Numbered from the stretch's first letter, positions 6,071 through 62,806 are shown. The stretch is DNA of 64,000 nucleotides from a virus (IMGVR_UViG_2713896908_000007), one strand, 5' to 3'. Notes: generated from the sequence alone by a model not told the origin. Numbers and translations are program-made.

Positions 6071-6730
6071 ACTTGCCGGGTACGTCTCCGGCGAGGGCTT
6101 CCACCTCCGTATGCTTTTCGGCGCACCGCGCCCTGGCTGCAATTCGGTAACAGGGGATGCATAACCCTGGCTTCCAGCGTGATTAGCGCTTTCAGCATGA
6201 CGGGATATACCCGTAAATTCGTGGAACTGTACCCAAAGTGCTGTTAAGCACCGCTGTTACGCTGAAAAGAAGACGCAACAGGAAAGGACGCTGACCAACA
6301 GATGGCCCCTTCTCGTTCATCTGGTTAATCACACCAGCGCCCTTACCTGTTGTGCCTCCCCGTTCCCTAATACACAGACGGGGACACTCTGCGGTCGATT
6401 TTTTGACGGGGGACGACTCATACCCCGTGGCGTCTGGCTTCTTAGGCCGCAGCCATCATCAGATCATCGTTTGCATTTACTTTAATGGTCAGTTTCTAAA
6501 CCGCCGCAAAGTCGCTAACCATGACGAAAACCCTGAAAAAACGCCCACCCGAAGATGGGCAAACAGGATGTAAGCTCGTTACGCATTTCGGTATTGCCAC
6601 TTAGGCGTATGGTCAACCTGGCAACTCGGCGTCATGAGGGGGAAGGAGTCACTACCCCGCCATACTTGCCGCCGCGCCTGTCGCGGCTAACAGCTAAATC
6701 GCTCTATAAATCACGATTCATTGAAACCAT

Positions 6731-53142: not shown

Positions 53143-54831
53143 ATGTGTTTGAACGATCATACAGTTATGGCCACCAGCAGCGGCTACATCGGTGTGGCAC
53201 CGTATACCCGCTTGCTATTACATCAGGCATCCGGCATCAAAGATATTATTCACCTGATCAGGCTGCTTTCCCGTACAGATCCCCAGGATGAACAGCTTGT
53301 TCAAGTGCTTGCGCATTTTGTCCGAATGCCTGTTGCCGACGTGAAAAAATGGTGCCGATTATTCGGTATCAGCAATTCGTTACTTCGCGGATTGTTAAAT
53401 CACGCATCCTCCCTTGGGCGCGACGGATTTGATGAGATAGCGCAGGCGATAAAAAACGGAGATATGCCACCAGCTATTGACTGGTTTTCCATTCGCCCAA
53501 CCAGGGTGAAAGCATTCCTTAGTGCGGCGCAATCAGCATCACCATTGGCAGAAATGGTTCAGAGGTTGTCGCTCATATTCACAGATCATACCGCGTTCGG
53601 TGATCTGGCTCTGGACGAGATGAAAGAAGCCTCCATTCAGTGGGCCGCTCAACAAAATGAGGTTAACTCAGACTTCTTGCCAGCATTCAGGAAGGCCGTT
53701 AGTAAAGCGGATGATGCCCGTGGAATTCTGAAGGCATTTAAGGCATTGCAAAGTCGGGTTAATAAACATGTCGGTGATATCGATGGGGTAACGGCGGAAG
53801 GCAGGGATATCCTTAAAGAGCACGGCATAACGCCAGAGTTTATTGATGAGATCAGGACGGATATGCAGCGTGAGGTCGTATCGTCCCTGCAAATTGTAGC
53901 CAGAGCGTTGGCGGATGCTAATCCGAAGAGTGCGGCCATTGTTAACCGGGTTATTGGTGATATTGAAGCATCGGAGGGCATGGGGGCGCTGAAACTCTTC
54001 CTTTCGCGAGCGTTTAATCCTAACGGCAATATTCTCCCTGGCATTATTGGTGAGGCTAAAAGGTATGTCAGTGAAGAAGAACTTGAGCAGCTTGACCAAC
54101 TACTTAAGCGATTCTCATATAACCCGCAGACACGCTGGCAAATGAATCAGCGAAGTATGGGTTCGGTCCACGAGAAAGTGTTATCTGCCATGAACAGTGC
54201 GATCGCAAACTCATCCGTATCTGAAGAAAAAGCTCTTGAGTGGGCCGACTCTTTTATCACGGAAGAAGTGGAAGAAGCCCGCGCTGGACAGAATGGTGGG
54301 ATAGACCTGCGCAAGGAACTTGCTGATATTTATCGCCTGACCGGCGGTAAAATTTCGACCCTATCAAAGATAATTCACCACCAGGGAAGGGCATATGCAA
54401 ATCTTAATGGTATTGTTGCTGTCAATTTGAACGATGAAAATGCAAGCGCACTGTGGCACGAGCTTGGTCATCATCTTGAGTACAGTAACCCTGGTCTGTT
54501 AGAGAAAGCCAGGTCATTCCTGAAGGCCAATGTTGAAGGGGATAAGCCATCTTTCGTTAATATCGGTGGGCGTGGTAAACCTGAATGGTGCTTCAGATCT
54601 CGATTGAGTAATATTTATATGGCGAAGGTATACCCGCCAGCCTCAGTGAGTAACTCCGGGAAAATTCGGCAGAAAGCACCGACTATTTCCAAAACGTCAG
54701 CAACGGAAGTATTCTCTATGGCTCTTCAGTTGTATCATGACAAAGAGGCCGCTGCCGCATCACTGATGAATGGTGACGGATTGCTGGAACTGTTATTAGG
54801 TGTGGCAAAGGAGCTAAATAATGCAGATTAA
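53143..54831 (+). CDS. large protein with C-terminal HExxH zincin-like motif
   Basis: 562 aa; WHELGHHLEYSNPG near the C-terminus; coupled to a small acidic ORF; occupies the region where P1 has ddrB. Confidence 0.45.
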   Translation: MCLNDHTVMATSSGYIGVAPYTRLLLHQASGIKDIIHLIRLLSRTDPQDEQLVQVLAHFVRMPVADVKKWCRLFGISNSLLRGLLNHASSLGRDGFDEIAQAIKNGDMPPAIDWFSIRPTRVKAFLSAAQSASPLAEMVQRLSLIFTDHTAFGDLALDEMKEASIQWAAQQNEVNSDFLPAFRKAVSKADDARGILKAFKALQSRVNKHVGDIDGVTAEGRDILKEHGITPEFIDEIRTDMQREVVSSLQIVARALADANPKSAAIVNRVIGDIEASEGMGALKLFLSRAFNPNGNILPGIIGEAKRYVSEEELEQLDQLLKRFSYNPQTRWQMNQRSMGSVHEKVLSAMNSAIANSSVSEEKALEWADSFITEEVEEARAGQNGGIDLRKELADIYRLTGGKISTLSKIIHHQGRAYANLNGIVAVNLNDENASALWHELGHHLEYSNPGLLEKARSFLKANVEGDKPSFVNIGGRGKPEWCFRSRLSNIYMAKVYPPASVSNSGKIRQKAPTISKTSATEVFSMALQLYHDKEAAAASLMNGDGLLELLLGVAKELNNAD

Positions 54832-55126
54832 AATCGCAGCGCCATTAGGCGGAGATGCAATTATCGAATTTGATGATAATGAAGAAGTTTCCGGGCGTTT
54901 AAGCATTATCTCCGGTGACATTACCGAGGACATGATCGCTGAAGCCATAGCTGGAGCAAATCCCAATAGCTATATGGGATTCGTTAACTCCCTTGATGCT
55001 CCCGCAAGCGATGTTCTCCGAACGCTGCATCTTTACGCTGGCTGGTTTGTTGATTGGCCAGCAGTAGAGGGTGGCGATGAGGACGACGATGATTTCGGTG
55101 ATAATATTAATCAGATTATATTTTAA
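54821..55126 (+). CDS. small highly acidic protein
   Basis: 101 aa, Asp/Glu-rich with EGGDEDDDDFGD; start overlaps the end of the HExxH protein gene. Confidence 0.4.
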   Translation: MQIKIAAPLGGDAIIEFDDNEEVSGRLSIISGDITEDMIAEAIAGANPNSYMGFVNSLDAPASDVLRTLHLYAGWFVDWPAVEGGDEDDDDFGDNINQIIF

Positions 55127-55285
55127 CCCATATGAGATATAATCGTTCTAATGGCATAAAGTTAGATTGTTCTTATATTCGACTTTGTGCCATCATTAGG
55201 ACTAATCATTTAGGGGTTCTTTTAGGTAGAAATTTAGCAATACATGTTTAGTATGGCAATATTTTCTAAAGGAGTTAGGTAAAAA

Positions 55286-56164
55286 GTGAAAAGAATTATT
55301 CCTGATAAAAAATGGTTAAAAGAAGAAAGCAGTAAGCGACAAGTGCCATCAGAATGTCCCTATGCAAATTCATATCGATGTCCTAGATATCACGAAAGTG
55401 TTATTTTGTTCTCACAGATGCAAATGATTGATGGCATGTCATATAATAAAGAGAAGGAGTTGAAACAGTTCTGGGAGAGAACCGACCTCTCTTCTTTATG
55501 TAATGGAGAAACCCCGTTGGTCTCAAAAAATGATAAAGGCGGGATTTTCTCTATAGATAATTTCTGTCCAGAAATATCGTTTAGATATTTAGGTTACTAT
55601 GCAGACTATATGCTGAGATACATTGATGAAGATGCTCACACTATAGGGTATGGCATAGCTAAAAGAGATCAGAAAGAAAATGATTGGAAGTATGATTGGT
55701 CCGAGGTCAATGCTGTTTTCTATGAGGATTGTTACCTCTTTGAGAGAGTTAAACAATTCAATAAAGAACTTCATGATAGTTTCTTTAAAAGACTACATCC
55801 GAATATTGTAATGCAAATAAGTAGAATGGATAAGTGTTTGGACTCAAATGACCCAACCGGTGTTTTGCATGCGGCATCTAATATTCTAGAAACAATGGCT
55901 AAAGAAATATTAGATGATCCAAATGTATTAAATAAATCGTTTGGCTCTTTTTTTGAGAAGTTTAAAAAAGAGTCAAAGTTGCCGTTAGGGTTTATTAATG
56001 CAGTTAAAGATATTTATGACTTACGTAATAAAATACCTACTGCTGGTCATGGGGGGGTGGGGATGCCTGGGTTATCTTTATCTGATGCCATAATGATTGC
56101 TGCATCAACAAAGGCTATTGTAGAGATTGAGTACAGAAACATTGATGTGGCTGCTATTGATTGA
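55286..56164 (+). CDS. AT-rich orphan protein, function unknown
   Basis: 292-aa ORF with AAGGAG RBS after an AT-rich promoter region; Cys-rich N-terminus; no domain recognised. Confidence 0.45.
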   Translation: MKRIIPDKKWLKEESSKRQVPSECPYANSYRCPRYHESVILFSQMQMIDGMSYNKEKELKQFWERTDLSSLCNGETPLVSKNDKGGIFSIDNFCPEISFRYLGYYADYMLRYIDEDAHTIGYGIAKRDQKENDWKYDWSEVNAVFYEDCYLFERVKQFNKELHDSFFKRLHPNIVMQISRMDKCLDSNDPTGVLHAASNILETMAKEILDDPNVLNKSFGSFFEKFKKESKLPLGFINAVKDIYDLRNKIPTAGHGGVGMPGLSLSDAIMIAASTKAIVEIEYRNIDVAAID

Positions 56165-56228
56165 GCTAATATAGCGAGGTTCCTTTTTGTATCGTTCGAA
56201 TTATCCCCGCCTGTCGGCGGGGTATAAC

Positions 56229-57011
56229 TTAATCACTTTCTACCTCTTCCGTTGAGTTTTCCAATGCTGCGCGACACAATTTCCTGGCATTGGTTATAGC
56301 CACACTTTTTACCTCATCCGTCATTGTACAGGTAATGTACTGATCGAGTTCTTCAGCTCGGATGATGCTTTTCCCAATCATAAACTCTATTTGCCAGAGC
56401 AGATCGGCATCCATCGTCAGTATTTCAGCCTGGCCTTCTGGGCCTGCGGGGAAGCAAACATAAGACTGTTTGCCCAGGCCGATAACTCGACAACTTGCTT
56501 CAAGAATTGCACGCTTGAGGTCTGACTTTGTAACTGAAACAGGTTGATTTTCACCTGTGATTACGCCGTTGGCATGGACGTGGAAGGGCATGTAGCTTGA
56601 AATTCGCTCTACTTTCCATACGCCAGCAAGCGATCCTTCATGCAGCACAATGGGGGTAACCGCGAGTTTCATCTCACCATATAACTGCTGGCAGATAGCT
56701 GGATTGCTGAATACATCCAAAGGTTCACACTCAAACAGCGGTGCAATCTGCATGAGGTCCATCATGGTCATACCAGGGGTACGAGCAGTAATGAATCTGC
56801 GCATTCCAGTATCCATTGTGCGCCAGATAGCTACACCATGCTTTTTGCTCACTTCTTCAGTAAAGCCAAGGTGGCACATGATGGTTTTTTCGATAGCCAG
56901 ATCAGAGATAGAAACCTTTTCGCCTGGCACGCCATCATTATTGATGGTCACTTCGACACTCTGGCCATTACGTAGGCGGTATTGAATGGTTTTAGTATTT
57001 TGTGCTGTCAT
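56229..57011 (-). CDS. hypothetical protein downstream of ssb
   Basis: 260-aa ORF on the ssb strand; no domain recognised. Confidence 0.4.
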   Translation of the reverse strand: MTAQNTKTIQYRLRNGQSVEVTINNDGVPGEKVSISDLAIEKTIMCHLGFTEEVSKKHGVAIWRTMDTGMRRFITARTPGMTMMDLMQIAPLFECEPLDVFSNPAICQQLYGEMKLAVTPIVLHEGSLAGVWKVERISSYMPFHVHANGVITGENQPVSVTKSDLKRAILEASCRVIGLGKQSYVCFPAGPEGQAEILTMDADLLWQIEFMIGKSIIRAEELDQYITCTMTDEVKSVAITNARKLCRAALENSTEEVESD

Positions 57012-57208
57012 AGTCTTTTCTCTGCTTAAAAACTGATGTATTGCGCCTTCAGGTTGGTTAGGAATGTTTTCCCACCAGCGAAAGCAATATCTCGGGGTGT
57101 TCTATTCGTTAAAATCGCGTGCCATTGCCAACTTTGGCGTTTTTTAGCGAGTTCGTGCTTTTGTTGGCGCCTGGACCACCGCTTTTCTTTCAGTCGTTTT
57201 TTACACAT

Positions 57209-57697
57209 TCAAAACGGAATATCGTCGTCAAAGTCCATTGGAGGTTCGTTATTGGCATTGCTCTGAGGTTTACCGCCACCGCTGTATTGCTGGTGGTTTT
57301 GAGGTTGGTTCGATTGCCCCCAGCCATTTGAGGACTGCGAATCGTCACGGCGAGTGCCAATCATTTGCATGGTGCCACCCTGGCTGACGATAATTTCCGT
57401 CGTATAACGTTCTACACCGACGTCATCTGTCCACTTACGGGTTTTAAGTTTCCCTTCGATGTAGACCTGAGAACCTTTTCGTAAATACTCACTCGCAATT
57501 TCAGCAAGTTTTCCGAACAAAACGACTTTATGCCATTCTGTTTGCTCTTTCTGTTGGCCCGTTTGCTTGTCGCGCCATGATTCATTCGTTGCGATGCTGA
57601 GTCTTCCGACTGCGCCGCCATTTGGTATATATCTGATCTCCGGGTCTTGTCCCAGGGTACCAATCAGGATGACTTTGTTTACACCGCGTTGTGCCAC
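57209..57697 (-). CDS. ssb: single-stranded DNA-binding protein
   Basis: OB-fold N-terminus ([19 protein letters not shown]), Gly/Gln-rich linker, acidic tail DFDDDIPF; GTG start. Confidence 0.9.
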
Positions 57698-57716
57698 TTA
57701 TCTTACCTAATAAAAT

Positions 57717-57733
57717 AAATTAATTAGAGCAAT
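57717..57733. promoter_or_regulatory. C1-type operator upstream of ssb
   Basis: AAATTAATTAGAGCAAT, 16/17 to the consensus, about 20 bp upstream of the ssb start. Confidence 0.55.
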
Positions 57734-57865
57734 AATGTATATCTTTGAAACGTAGCTAACAAGTGATTTGCATTATCCTGTGCCTTCTAAAGGGATCGAG
57801 TCAGTCGGTATTGGCTGTGAATGGGTGTTTGTCCTGGAGCGTAAAATTTCGCTTATGAGGTCTTT

Positions 57866-58423
57866 ATGAAGGGAAAAACAGCCGCAGGAGGCGGTGCAAT
57901 TTGCGCTATCGCGGTGATGATTACCATCGTGATGGGTAATGGCAATGTGCGAACCAACCAGGCGGGGCTTGAGCTGATTGGTAACGCTGAAGGTTGCCGA
58001 CGTGATCCATACATGTGCCCGGCAGGGGTATGGACTGACGGGATCGGTAATACACACGGGGTAACGCCGGGTGTGCGAAAAACAGACCAGCAAATCGCCG
58101 CTGATTGGGAAAAGAATATCCTGATCGCTGAACGCTGTATTAATCAGCACTTCCGGGGCAAAGACATGCCCGATAATGCCTTCAGTGCAATGACAAGCGC
58201 GGCATTCAATATGGGATGCAATAGCTTACGGACCTACTACAGCAAAGCGCGAGGCATGCGAGTAGAAACATCCATCCACAAGTGGGCGCAGAAAGGGGAA
58301 TGGGTGAATATGTGTAACCATCTCCCTGATTTCGTGAACAGTAACGGCGTGCCCTTGCGAGGTTTAAAGATTCGCCGTGAAAAAGAACGCCAGCTTTGCC
58401 TGACTGGGCTGGTCAATGAATAA
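57866..58423 (+). CDS. lyz: endolysin with N-terminal SAR domain
   Basis: 185 aa; Gly/Ala-rich weakly hydrophobic N-terminus then a T4-lysozyme-like catalytic region; same length as remembered P1 Lyz. Confidence 0.85.
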   Translation: MKGKTAAGGGAICAIAVMITIVMGNGNVRTNQAGLELIGNAEGCRRDPYMCPAGVWTDGIGNTHGVTPGVRKTDQQIAADWEKNILIAERCINQHFRGKDMPDNAFSAMTSAAFNMGCNSLRTYYSKARGMRVETSIHKWAQKGEWVNMCNHLPDFVNSNGVPLRGLKIRREKERQLCLTGLVNE

Positions 58424-58670
58424 ACTCCGGCAGCTCCGCCGACTTTCGACAATGAAGTTATCGCTGGCGGCGATAGTTTTTGACTCGATTTTCATGGCGG
58501 TATATGTGCTCAATGAGACGTGGCCACTGGAACCGCTATTATATGCCGGGCTTCGGCTGTGCCTGACATTTTTGAGCATGGCTGCAAGATTGATGCAGCA
58601 GAAAGAAACCGCTTCAGATTGTCCACGCCGTGCGGTGCGCAAATATATGGCACGCAGGCGAAAGCGATAA
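58416..58670 (+). CDS. small membrane protein overlapping the lyz 3' end
   Basis: 84-aa ORF with two hydrophobic segments and a basic tail; followed by a strong terminator. Confidence 0.35.
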   Translation: MNKLRQLRRLSTMKLSLAAIVFDSIFMAVYVLNETWPLEPLLYAGLRLCLTFLSMAARLMQQKETASDCPRRAVRKYMARRRKR

Positions 58671-58681
58671 TAGTTAACGAG

Positions 58682-58709
58682 AACCCCGGCAGCCGCCGGG
58701 GTTATTTTT
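58682..58709 (+). terminator. rho-independent terminator
   Basis: AACCCCGGC-AGC-GCCGGGGTT hairpin followed by ATTTTTGG. Confidence 0.85.
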
Positions 58710-58714
58710 GGTGG

Positions 58715-59734
58715 TTATTTAAATGGATTGATTGAATTATTAAACGTGATGATGCTTGTCTCACACGGTGCCTGGACGTTAGCCGCTTGCGGAACCTCCT
58801 TAATTTTCTTGGTGACAGGCAAGTTGCGTGCTCCAACTTTGATCAGAGATTCGAAAAGTGTGGCAACGATTTTTGCATCACCAGGTTCTTTGAGGCGGAA
58901 TGCGTCTTTTTGGGCGGCGGAGACGAAGATTGGGAGGTTATCCAGTTCGTCTTGCATCGCTGCCAGCACATCATCGCGGATACCCGCTGTTTCCTCCAGC
59001 AAAGCGATTCGCGCTTCAGCATCTGCGATCTTGGCCATTGCTTCGAGGTGGCGGCCCTGGCTTTCGAGTAGTGCAGTTTCCAGTTCTGCCGTACGCTCTG
59101 TCGCCTCCACCATCATTTCCAGTTCAGCCATTTTGCCGTAATGGGATATAACGGCCTGCACTGACTCGTCGGAGTACCCATGCGCCGCCAGGGACTCTGC
59201 CAGTAAGGATTTAGAATCCGCGCTTTCAAACATTCCGGCGCTGGCAGGATGATCCAGGCTGATATAGTTCGGCGTTGTCACATAATCCACACCATGGAAG
59301 CTGGTGGTTACAGCGATTTTCCCGGACTCACGCCCGCCAGTGGCCCAGCTCCAGCCACCAGCTCGGCTTTCGATCATCGCGGCGACAATTTTACCCGGCT
59401 CTGTGTTAAGAATTTCCTGTGTATGGGTAACGATTCCGTTGTCGTCAACAGATATAGCCACTGTGCGGCACGCTGGAACATTGTCGATTACGACCGGGCG
59501 ACCTTCCACCATGATCACGCTGGTTTCTGGTACTTCCAGTTTGCCGGTCAGCTGTCGGCGACCGTGACCGTAATAGCCGAAAAGCTCACCAAGGCGTAAA
59601 CCTTCCTGAGTTTCCTTGCTTTCAAGCATGGTCTTAACCGCGCTTAATACATACTGTCGCCCGTTCTGGCGACCTTTTCGAGCATTGCTATAGAGACAAA
59701 AGCGGTCAGTGACCGTTTTCAAAACATCAGTCAT
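58715..59734 (-). CDS. head morphogenesis protein (protease/scaffold-like, P1 pro position)
   Basis: 339 aa with a coiled-coil C-terminal half; position between lyz and portal candidate. Confidence 0.4.
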   Translation of the reverse strand: MTDVLKTVTDRFCLYSNARKGRQNGRQYVLSAVKTMLESKETQEGLRLGELFGYYGHGRRQLTGKLEVPETSVIMVEGRPVVIDNVPACRTVAISVDDNGIVTHTQEILNTEPGKIVAAMIESRAGGWSWATGGRESGKIAVTTSFHGVDYVTTPNYISLDHPASAGMFESADSKSLLAESLAAHGYSDESVQAVISHYGKMAELEMMVEATERTAELETALLESQGRHLEAMAKIADAEARIALLEETAGIRDDVLAAMQDELDNLPIFVSAAQKDAFRLKEPGDAKIVATLFESLIKVGARNLPVTKKIKEVPQAANVQAPCETSIITFNNSINPFK

Positions 59735-61009
59735 TATATTGCCCTCCAGCTACCTTACCTAATGTCTGTTGGTATATTGGCTTTGATAACATTTTCGTCC
59801 GTGTATTCATTTATATACTCATTAGTTTCAATGTATTATATAGAACATGAAGCGTGCCTATAAATATCGATTCTATCCAACTCCCGAACAAACCGAGCTA
59901 TTAGCCCGGACTTTTGGGTGTGTGCGTTTTGTCTATAACAGCCTCCTTCGCTGGCGTACCGATGCATACTACGCACGCCATGAGAGGGTCGGCTATGCAC
60001 AAGCCAGCGCCAAATTAACGGCACTGAAAAAAGAACCAGAATTCGCTTGGCTGAATGACGTTTCCTGCGTCCCCCTCCAGCAGTCTCTGCGCCACCAACA
60101 AACGGCTTTTGCTAACTTTTTCGCCGGGCGTGCTGCATACCCAGTTTTTAAGAGCAAGCGGCATAAACAGGCCGCAGAACTAACTGCCAGCGCATTTAAA
60201 TACCGTGACGGCAAGCTGTACATGGCAAAGAGCAAAGAGCCGTTAGATGTTCGCTGGAGCCGTCCGTTGCCGTCTGCTCCATCCACTGTCACTATCACCA
60301 GGGATGCTGCCGGACGATATTTTGTATCCTGTCTCTGCGAGTTTGAGCCTGTATCACTGCCGATCACCGTTTCCACGGTCGGCATTGATATTGGTTTAAA
60401 AGATTTGTTCGTCACCGATACCGGTTTCAAAACTGGCAATCCTCGACACAACGCTAAATACGCGAAGCGATTAGCAGTGTTACAGCGCAGATTGAGCAAG
60501 AAACAAAAAGGCTCAAAGAACCGCGCCAAAGCACGTTTAAAGGTTGCCCGCCTCCACGCGAGAATAGTCGATTGTCGGATGGATAACCTGCATAAGTTGT
60601 CCCGCAAACTGATTAACGAAAACCAAGTTGTTTGCGTCGAATCCCTTAAAGTGAAAAACATGATCCGTAACCCGAAGCTGTCTAAAGCAATAGCTGACGC
60701 AGGCTGGAGCGAACTTGTACGCCAACTCCAGTACAAAGGAGAATGGGGTGGACGTAGCATTGTCGCTATCGACCAGTATTTCCCTTCTTCCAAACGTTGC
60801 AGCAGTTGCGGCTTCACCATGCAAAAAATGCCTCTTAATATTCGTAAATGGCACTGCCCGGAATGTGGCGCAGAGCATGATCGTGATATTAACGCGGCCC
60901 GTAATATAAAAGCTGCCGGGCTGGCAGTGTTAGCCCTTGGAGAGTCTGTAATTCCTAAGCCGCTTCATGTGGTTTAGGTCGGACTCTGTGAATTGGGAAT
61001 GTTTGCCGT
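59735..61009 (+). mobile_element. solo TnpB element (IS200/IS605 family, no tnpA), filling the gap between two structural genes
   Basis: Single tnpB ORF plus about 110 bp left and 30 bp right flanks; element ends not defined. Confidence 0.55.
59847..60977 (+). CDS. tnpB: TnpB, RuvC-like RNA-guided nuclease
   Basis: Hallmark N-terminus MKRAYKYRFYPTPEQ; RuvC motifs (GIDIGLKD, ...E..., HDRDINAARNI); zinc finger CSSCG...CPECG. Confidence 0.85.
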   Translation: MKRAYKYRFYPTPEQTELLARTFGCVRFVYNSLLRWRTDAYYARHERVGYAQASAKLTALKKEPEFAWLNDVSCVPLQQSLRHQQTAFANFFAGRAAYPVFKSKRHKQAAELTASAFKYRDGKLYMAKSKEPLDVRWSRPLPSAPSTVTITRDAAGRYFVSCLCEFEPVSLPITVSTVGIDIGLKDLFVTDTGFKTGNPRHNAKYAKRLAVLQRRLSKKQKGSKNRAKARLKVARLHARIVDCRMDNLHKLSRKLINENQVVCVESLKVKNMIRNPKLSKAIADAGWSELVRQLQYKGEWGGRSIVAIDQYFPSSKRCSSCGFTMQKMPLNIRKWHCPECGAEHDRDINAARNIKAAGLAVLALGESVIPKPLHVV

Positions 61010-62740
<1,731 letters not shown>

Positions 62741-62806
62741 TTAATTAGAATAATTCGCATCGTGTTTTAACGGAATTTAACACTAGTCACTTGTTAAGGA
62801 TTACCA

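Follow-up and report, generated by a model that had tools for sequence, protein, structure and literature searches.

What is a complete tnpB gene doing between two structural genes of a P1-like phage-plasmid, and is it anything more than a passenger there? The question is raised by the viral contig IMGVR_UViG_2713896908_000007, analyzed here as a stretch of 64,000 nucleotides (hereafter, the window) in which tnpB lies between pro, encoding a head processing protein, and prt, encoding the portal protein. Cas12 descends from TnpB elements, whose biology in nature is still being unraveled. Taken together, the analyses described below suggest, with a probability of roughly 60%, that this tnpB belongs to an active homing element that is unable to transpose and that would instead be copied, by an RNA-guided homing mechanism, into P1-like genomes that lack it. 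If so, the locus offers a natural test case for TnpB homing between genomes rather than within one, in a system where P1 genetics is tractable. The window itself is a P1-like phage-plasmid, with approximately 10 kb around the element (window ~53735-64000) being base-for-base identical to Escherichia albertii plasmid pEA16-1_1 (NZ_CP117651). The replicon of pEA16-1_1 is listed as IncHI1B in PLSDB, and those of three other carrier plasmids as IncY.

Comparison with insert-free P1 genomes, a check suggested in a first-pass annotation of the window, defined both the boundaries of the element and its target motif. The insert is absent from P1 and from 18 other P1-like phage records. In P1 (NC_005856), the alignment places the empty site at CAGTCAT followed by TATCGTTTCCC; set against the window, the empty junction reads CAGTCAT followed directly by TATCGTTTCCCTC, and the filled junction reads CAGTCAT, the element from TATATTGCCCTCC to ACAATTGTCAA, and then TATCGTTTCCCTC. 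The P1 alignment alone leaves a 3-bp (TAT) uncertainty in the element end. This ambiguity is settled by 53 distinct relatives, which are conserved through GCAGTCAA and lose similarity directly beyond the right end GTCAA (61025-61029), such that the whole element, a tnpB-only insertion of the IS200/IS605 type, occupies window positions 59735-61029 on the plus strand (1295 bp). The interval first proposed, 59735-61009, thus falls short by the last 20 bp of the element, which form the 3' end of the portal open reading frame. A second, independent filled and empty pair is found at ybhB-bioA, where an 81%-identical copy in E. coli CFT073 can be compared with strain BEN5202: the empty site reads TTCAT followed by GAACCCTCC, and the filled site reads TTCAT, the element from TAGAATGCC to CCGTCAA, and then GAGCCCTCC. 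In both pairs the order is TCAT, element ending in GTCAA, and flank, with no target duplication, as is the pattern in the IS200/IS605 family. Directly left of the left end, TCAT is invariant at approximately 40 distinct insertion sites and is present in the empty P1 site. Two other readings of these ends were rejected. Specifically, the possibility that the insertion sequence (IS) brings its own start codon, with CAT being part of the element, is ruled out by the presence of TCAT in both empty sites, and the resemblance of the left-end start TATATTGCCCTCC to the right flank TATCGTTTCCCTC does not reflect a target duplication, as both are Shine-Dalgarno (SD) regions at equal spacing. The features of the left flank and of the element up to the end of its gene are as follows:

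59731-59734, plus strand: TCAT, left-flank motif and presumed transposon-adjacent motif (TAM); on the minus strand it reads ATGA, the pro start codon plus one base
59735-59846, plus strand: left end, 112 nt, holding CCCTCC (59742-59747) and a decayed subterminal hairpin
59810-59839, plus strand: sigma-70-like promoter match TTTATA-18-TATTAT, just 5' of tnpB, matching 9 of 12 positions in a consensus scan
59847-60977, plus strand: tnpB coding sequence, a complete open reading frame of 376 aa, the product being identical to RefSeq WP_001312284.1 as annotated on pEA16-1_1

The first-pass annotation described a complete, solo tnpB with intact RuvC motifs and zinc finger, and this description is borne out. 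The protein matches HTH_OrfB_IS605 (PF12323), OrfB_IS605 (PF01385) and Cas12f1-like_TNB (PF07282) above the Pfam cut-offs, giving the helix-turn-helix, RuvC-like OrfB_IS605 domain and C-terminal zinc ribbon characteristic of an IS200/IS605 TnpB. Among solved structures its best natural match is the TnpB of ISDra2 (8bf8/8exa/8h1j), to which residues 3-365 align with E=7e-77. By that alignment the RuvC triad is present as D181 (GIDIG), E265 (CVESLK) and D347 (HDRDINAA), and the CxxC..CxxC zinc finger is intact at C318, C321, C337 and C340. These residues bear on a different fate documented for such proteins, that of the TldR repressors, nuclease-dead TnpB derivatives in which RuvC residues and/or the C-terminal zinc-finger/RuvC segment have been lost (PMC10705468); a TldR reading is ruled out by the three catalytic residues, the four cysteines and the full length of the protein. 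No Y1 transposase accompanies the gene: tnpB is the sole gene between the element ends, the left end being just 112 nt, and a tblastn search of the 64-kb window with an IS200 TnpA query returned only chance matches (E>1). The same query detects tnpA beside three distant homologues, and a tnpA in the window would therefore have been seen. An assignment to IS607 is likewise ruled out, there being no adjacent serine recombinase and the neighbors being pro and prt. As for expression, sigma-70-like matches are no commoner in the region than in shuffles, and the match at 59810-59839 is taken as a lead only. Together these data identify a non-autonomous, tnpB-only member of the IS200/IS605 family, belonging to the enterobacterial lineage that includes gipA of the Gifsy-1 prophage and the copy annotated as ISEc42. 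The latter label is the GenBank annotation of the P1-type copy, and in the literature it occurs only in lists.

The second component expected of a working element is its RNA, and here conservation of structure is evident. An alignment of the terminal 150 nt at the right end, built from 53 distinct relatives, was folded with RNAalifold, yielding 30 pairs in six helices, with compensatory double changes in 23 of the 30. Scoring the cells of this alignment gives 96.5% paired and 141 with double changes; in controls with the partners shifted by 1-3 columns the values fall to 35-47% and 25-35 cells, and in 500 shuffles no observed measure was equaled. In the terminal hairpin the P1 lineage carries two private double substitutions (C-G to G-C and C-G to U-A) that keep the pairing. 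The resulting features are:

~60912-61029, plus strand: omega-RNA scaffold of six helices, supported by RNAalifold covariation, terminating at the right end GTCAA
60912-17/60923-28, 60934-38/60993-97 and 60942-46/60982-86, plus strand: omega-RNA helices 1-3 (RNAalifold)
60954-58/60974-78, 60962-63/60969-70 and 61000-08/61013-21, plus strand: omega-RNA helices 4-6 (RNAalifold)
61030-61049, plus strand: predicted guide TATCGTTTCCCTCTTTAAAG, directly 3' of the right end, comprising the native pro ribosome-binding site region and the last portal codons

A scan of 58500-62000 against Rfam 15 returned no family at E<=1, this type of omega-RNA not being represented there. A structured RNA that overlaps the 3' end of tnpB, terminates at the right end and is followed by a flank-derived guide is the organization of an OMEGA system, predicted in this case from sequence. 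The guide is inferred to comprise the 16-20 nt past the right end, within 61030-61049, its position being set by the right-end boundary and its length by analogy with ISDra2. Consequently, an earlier expectation of a guide RNA at the 3' end of the element is upheld insofar as the RNA lies there and reaches into the portal gene, and is corrected as to coordinates: positions 60977-61009, to which it had been assigned, are scaffold and not guide. The identity of the element, its boundaries and its RNA can be regarded as close to certain.

What would such a complex find to cut? In the uninterrupted P1 junction, TCAT and the predicted guide are contiguous and match exactly. Among 89 empty P1-like contigs from IMG/VR (L167-L255), chosen by their conserved outer flanks, the exact guide follows TCAT in 63, and 22 have TCTCG in place of TATCG after TCAT, a mismatch at guide position 2 (equivalent to window 61031) that changes a portal residue from D to E; the remaining 4 carry other single variants. 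The position 2 variant may protect against cleavage, or it may be ordinary polymorphism. It outlines a candidate arms race: the ribosome-binding site and portal C-terminus targeted by the guide are under functional constraint, yet a variant at this seed position is present in 25% of empty genomes. Within a carrier, the sole close match to the target is the right-end junction, where the guide is preceded by TCAA and not TCAT. A further near-target in the portal gene, TCACTATCGTTTCCGT at 62322-62337, has two mismatches, one of them in the TAM, and was rejected as being at chance level (13% of shuffles). At the chromosomal ybhB site, at least one empty genome has a target that is mismatched to guide position 3 (GAA vs GAG).

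These observations fit the following sequence of events. The element would have entered a P1-like phage-plasmid just 3' of TCAT, splitting the overlapping prt-pro junction, and would have been tolerated there, with its left end giving pro a replacement SD sequence and its right end closing the portal frame after six new codons. A left-end promoter would drive tnpB, and the transcript would fold in its 3' part (~60912-61029) as the omega-RNA scaffold, followed by a guide of 16-20 nt (61030-61049) taken from the flanking DNA. The complex would then recognize TCAT plus TATCGTTTCCCTCTTTAAAG, a combination found only in P1-like genomes without the element, the carrier being protected because its own copy of the guide is preceded by TCAA. 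An empty genome present in the same cell would be cut and repaired from the carrier, with the result that the element is copied in. TnpB homing is established for IS605-family elements of Geobacillus (PMC10055086).

The distribution of the element, and the state of its left end, indicate how it may and may not spread. Copies of at least 95% identity occur in 37-38 E. coli genomes and on E. albertii and E. fergusonii plasmids, in every case on P1-like plasmids of ~95-100 kb, and at least 37 of the E. coli copies occupy the same pro/prt site. Searches of PLSDB and of 5426 complete E. coli genomes found no copy of at least 95% identity off P1-like plasmids. Members of the IS200/IS605 family carry hairpins at both ends, the sites that TnpA recognizes, and relatives of the element do so, possessing an 8-bp GC left-end hairpin such as CCCCGGCC-TTTA-GGCCGGGG. 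In the window copy the left-end hairpin is absent (DNA fold -2.5 kcal/mol, z=+1.06): its 5' arm is still recognizable by alignment (CCTTACCT vs CCTTGCCC), and its 3' arm has decayed to AT-rich sequence. The right-end hairpin is kept as omega-RNA helix 6, doubling as part of that RNA. The notion that this hairpin still pairs as RNA but not as DNA was rejected, as its DNA fold remains at -5.6 kcal/mol; only the left end has been lost. With the left-end hairpin lost, no tnpA and no copy elsewhere, the element appears stranded and able to spread only by recombination, and the window copy probably no longer transposes, its spread depending on homing or recombination.

That conclusion weighs directly upon a more conventional account, in which the element is an ordinary mobile IS served in trans by the TnpA of another IS200/IS605 element, and the carriers represent repeated independent insertions at the same TCAT. 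The family does transpose, its members being found at no fewer than 40 different sites and some genomes having 3-4 copies, and the window copy has kept both the right-end hairpin and GTCAA. Genomes with multiple copies include Serratia proteamaculans CBSDS_009 and Klebsiella sp. MISC125. Such an account must nevertheless accommodate the missing left-end hairpin, the lack of a tnpA in the window, the confinement of copies to P1-like plasmids, with those checked lying at the pro/prt junction, and the fact that TCAT is too short a motif to direct repeated insertion at one site. It is considered very improbable.

If the element does not transpose, is it maintained by its own activity or simply inherited? 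The latter alternative supposes one ancestral insertion in a P1-like genome, with TnpB and omega-RNA intact owing to recency and idle in P1. It agrees with the 99.5-100% identity of the copies at a single site, with the decayed left end, and with the low frequency of carriers: of ~490 records in the 5426 complete E. coli genomes that match the pro/prt region at 95% identity or more, 37 contain the insert (~7.5%). Several lines of evidence are difficult to reconcile with it. Firstly, the 376-aa tnpB reading frame is kept in all seven carrier loci compared, and polymorphism among them, with one outlier left out, amounts to 9 synonymous changes and 1 nonsynonymous change, a ratio unlikely without constraint. 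Consistent with this ratio is a dN/dS of 0.09-0.11 against relatives, and together these values indicate that tnpB is under purifying selection in the P1 lineage. Secondly, the private compensatory substitutions in the terminal hairpin of the P1-lineage omega-RNA would not be expected of an idle RNA. Thirdly, decay has affected the left end and not tnpB or the right end, which argues for selective retention. The outlier, locus L257 on E. coli plasmid pEC21Z048-103K, carries within tnpB, at 6206-6421 (window 59940-60155), a cluster of private changes that are mostly G to A; 7 of them are nonsynonymous, compared with 0-1 in other carriers. Decay or hypermutation of this copy may be the cause, or sequencing error.

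A fourth line of evidence is provided by the flanks of the insert. Among the six carriers other than L257, the element differs at 1-6 of 1295 nt. The 1 kb on either side of it shows as many as 25 differences per 1000 nt, most pairs having 12-25 and the left flanks of L258 and L259 being identical, making the element ~3-10 times less diverged than its immediate surroundings. The flank polymorphisms are those segregating among empty genomes, the nearest lying at -101 and +98 relative to the element ends. As judged from these alignments, the same young insert sits on several older backbone haplotypes, with exchange points near its ends. Homing with short co-conversion tracts predicts this, one insert on several flank haplotypes with exchange close to the ends, and a simply inherited passenger does not readily account for it. 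Passive inheritance is accordingly held to be unlikely.

The same biochemistry admits a different beneficiary. Rather than serving its own spread, the TnpB complex may have been recruited by the phage-plasmid as a means of destroying incoming or co-resident P1-like competitors that lack the insert, the outcome being exclusion and not conversion. The exact guide match in most empty relatives, the purifying selection upon tnpB and the mismatch next to the TAM in 22 of the 89, which could be an escape allele, are each compatible with such a role. Sequence alone does not separate exclusion from homing, and the position 2 variant, changing a portal codon as it does, may be ordinary polymorphism; the presence of the insert on several flank haplotypes, in turn, argues that conversion happens. 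Exclusion is thus viewed as a distinctly doubtful explanation of the pattern. Taken together, the selection on tnpB, the conserved RNA structure and the homing-like population pattern support the earlier suggestion that the nuclease may be active, and favor the reading of the element as a homing element.

Five considerations weigh against that reading. As carriers account for only ~7.5% of P1-like pro/prt loci, any drive must be weak or encounters between carrier and empty genomes rare. The diversity comparison draws upon seven carrier loci, a small sample. P1-like plasmids are, moreover, highly mosaic, and ordinary recombination, free of any nuclease, could also spread an insert over haplotypes. 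The assignment of TCAT as the TAM derives from the flanks only, and TCAT lies a single base from the self sequence TCAA, a discrimination that the model requires. Finally, terminator-like hairpins carried by the element on the minus strand may bear on the efficiency of pro transcription.

How does an insertion of 1295 bp come to be tolerated at such a crowded position? The neighboring genes are as follows:

58715-59734, minus strand: pro, head processing, its native SD sequence now 1.3 kb away at 61038-61045
61010-62731, minus strand: prt, portal, the last six codons and stop (61010-61029) deriving from the right end of the element

The two had been taken for divergent structural genes with the element filling the interval between them. 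In fact, both are on the minus strand, belong to one late operon and, in P1, overlap by 8 bp (ATGACTGA), leaving no intergenic space: the prt stop lies within the start of pro (…AAC GAT AAT GAC TGA, with the pro ATG inside AATGAC). The insertion lies directly 3' of TCAT, whose last three bases, CAT (59732-59734), form the start codon of pro when read on the opposite strand. Within the left end, CCCTCC (59742-59747) is the reverse complement of a new SD sequence, GGAGGG, located 8 nt upstream of the pro ATG; on the gene strand the junction reads GGAGGGCAATATA-ATG, with the spacing of the native site. At the other side the portal frame closes within the right end after six codons, and the C-terminus changes from NDND* in P1 to NDIDNCPP* in the carrier, from which it follows that the last 20 bp of the annotated portal gene are IS sequence. 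The element therefore created the pro/prt interval and rebuilt both the ribosome-binding site of pro and the C-terminus of the portal protein. This calls for a correction of annotation, the C-terminus of the portal protein being IS-encoded in carrier plasmids. The insert is also present in the GenBank phage record vB_EcoM-673R5 (ON470615.2), and for this reason appears compatible with a working phage. In that record (L002 3047-5532) tnpB and the portal gene are annotated in fragments, probably as a consequence of frameshift errors in the record and not because they are pseudogenes. On the portal-to-pro strand, 8 terminator-like hairpins were counted within the element in the scanned region, against 1.8 expected, including those at 60927-60913 and 59909-59893; one of them is formed by the complement of omega-RNA helix 1, with CTTTTATATT after it. 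The left end further contains a sigma-70-like promoter match facing pro (59864-59835, minus strand; 10 of 12 positions).

The arrangement at pro is not peculiar to P1. Four annotated relatives were examined, lying at Citrobacter trbC, CFT073 ybhB, the gpU homologue of Gifsy-1 and Yersinia traX. In all four, the left end adjoins a TCAT that is the annotated start codon of the neighboring gene, to which the element is antisense, and lies ~108 nt upstream of the tnpB ATG; the left end reads nAGAATGCCTCC, which is GGAGGCATTCT in reverse complement. The target dictates the antisense orientation, since an element inserting 3' of TCAT can be upstream only of a leftward-reading gene. Of 59 distinct insertion sites surveyed in GTDB genomes and IMG/VR, 41 have an open frame of 50 codons or more that runs antisense and has as its start the very CAT adjoining the left end (p=2.5e-9 against a lenient null of 32%), and several of the remaining sites still read TCAT followed by CAGAATGCCTCC. 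Because that null is lenient, the two empty sites and five gene starts known from annotation carry most of the weight. At 36 start-codon sites, an SD-like motif is present in the left end at 29, and the displaced native SD lies within 18 nt past the right end at 24. Likewise, most relatives of 70-87% identity (loci L003-L142) show TCAT as the start codon of an antisense gene and GCCTCC, a reverse-complement SD, at the start of the left end, with the displaced native SD directly past the right end. Sub-lineages in which the left end begins TTATCAATTTGCGCG... are mostly without the start-codon and SD arrangement.

These features suggest a lineage adapted to polarity-free insertion at ATGA start codons, for which targeting and the survival of harmless insertions are both possible routes. 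Insertion at a start codon together with a new ribosome-binding site would explain why members of the family, gipA in Gifsy-1 among them, are found inside phage structural and conjugation operons. A literature search returned no description of an insertion that donates an SD sequence at a start codon, or of a TnpB element in P1-like plasmids; this is not proof of novelty, and the style of insertion is apparently undescribed, the kind of element being itself known. A broader proposal can be offered tentatively, at somewhat less than even odds: that a TnpB lineage has evolved to insert between the ribosome-binding site and an ATGA start, carrying an SD in its left end and stops in its right end and so lodging in the packed operons of phages, plasmids and chromosomes without polar damage; and that in P1 the element, devoid of transposition structure, persists purely by RNA-guided homing, driving through P1-like phage-plasmids, of whose empty genomes approximately one quarter carry a TAM-adjacent mismatch that may give resistance. 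Two points merit further attention, the architecture of polarity-free insertion and the evidence for the P1 copy as a homing-only derivative.

Comparison with known systems places the element among several that differ from it in instructive ways. ISDra2 of Deinococcus radiodurans shares its domain order, catalytic triad and zinc finger, and has a scaffold that overlaps the 3' end of tnpB and stops at the right end. ISDra2 possesses its own tnpA, hairpins at its left and right ends, and the TAM TTGAT; the window element, in contrast, has no tnpA, is flanked on the left by TCAT and has lost its left-end hairpin. Closer in sequence is gipA of the Salmonella prophage Gifsy-1, annotated as 'Peyer's patch-specific virulence factor GipA', with ~80% nucleotide and 84% protein identity and the same right end. 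It too is a solo tnpB that lies antisense in an operon of phage structural genes, with homologues of gpU and gpZ on its two sides; its left end, CAGAATGCCTCC, adjoins the TCAT of the gpU start codon. Unlike the window copy, it retains a GC-rich left-end hairpin, occupies another site in another phage, and has a reported virulence role without counterpart here; the literature linking GipA with TnpB consists only of a note of homology. The chromosomal ISEc42-type copy at ybhB-bioA of E. coli CFT073, Nissle and 536, at 81% nucleotide identity, shows the same order of TCAT, left end, GTCAA and native SD, and differs in being chromosomal with an intact left-end hairpin. Of 5420 complete E. coli genomes, 342 carry it at the start codon of ybhB (as in L007 4003-5133); CFT073, Nissle 1917, 536, ATCC 25922 and an O127:H6 strain are among them.

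With regard to behavior, the free-standing homing endonuclease genes of T-even phages (seg/mob) provide one likeness: in each case a nuclease gene lies between essential phage genes, would cut the allele lacking the insert, and would be copied into it in mixed infection with short co-conversion tracts. The seg/mob enzymes recognize their sites through protein-DNA contacts and are of the GIY-YIG or HNH type, whereas the TnpB of the window is RNA-guided, RuvC-type and outside those families. The nearest mechanistic parallel to the proposal made here is the homing of ISGst in Geobacillus (PMC10055086), in which a TAM and a flank-derived guide allow the vacant site to be cut again and recombination restores the element, a geometry that the P1 junction fits exactly. 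For ISGst, the vacant site results from excision by TnpA within the same genome; for the present element, which seems unable to excise, the vacant sites would be those of other P1-like genomes.

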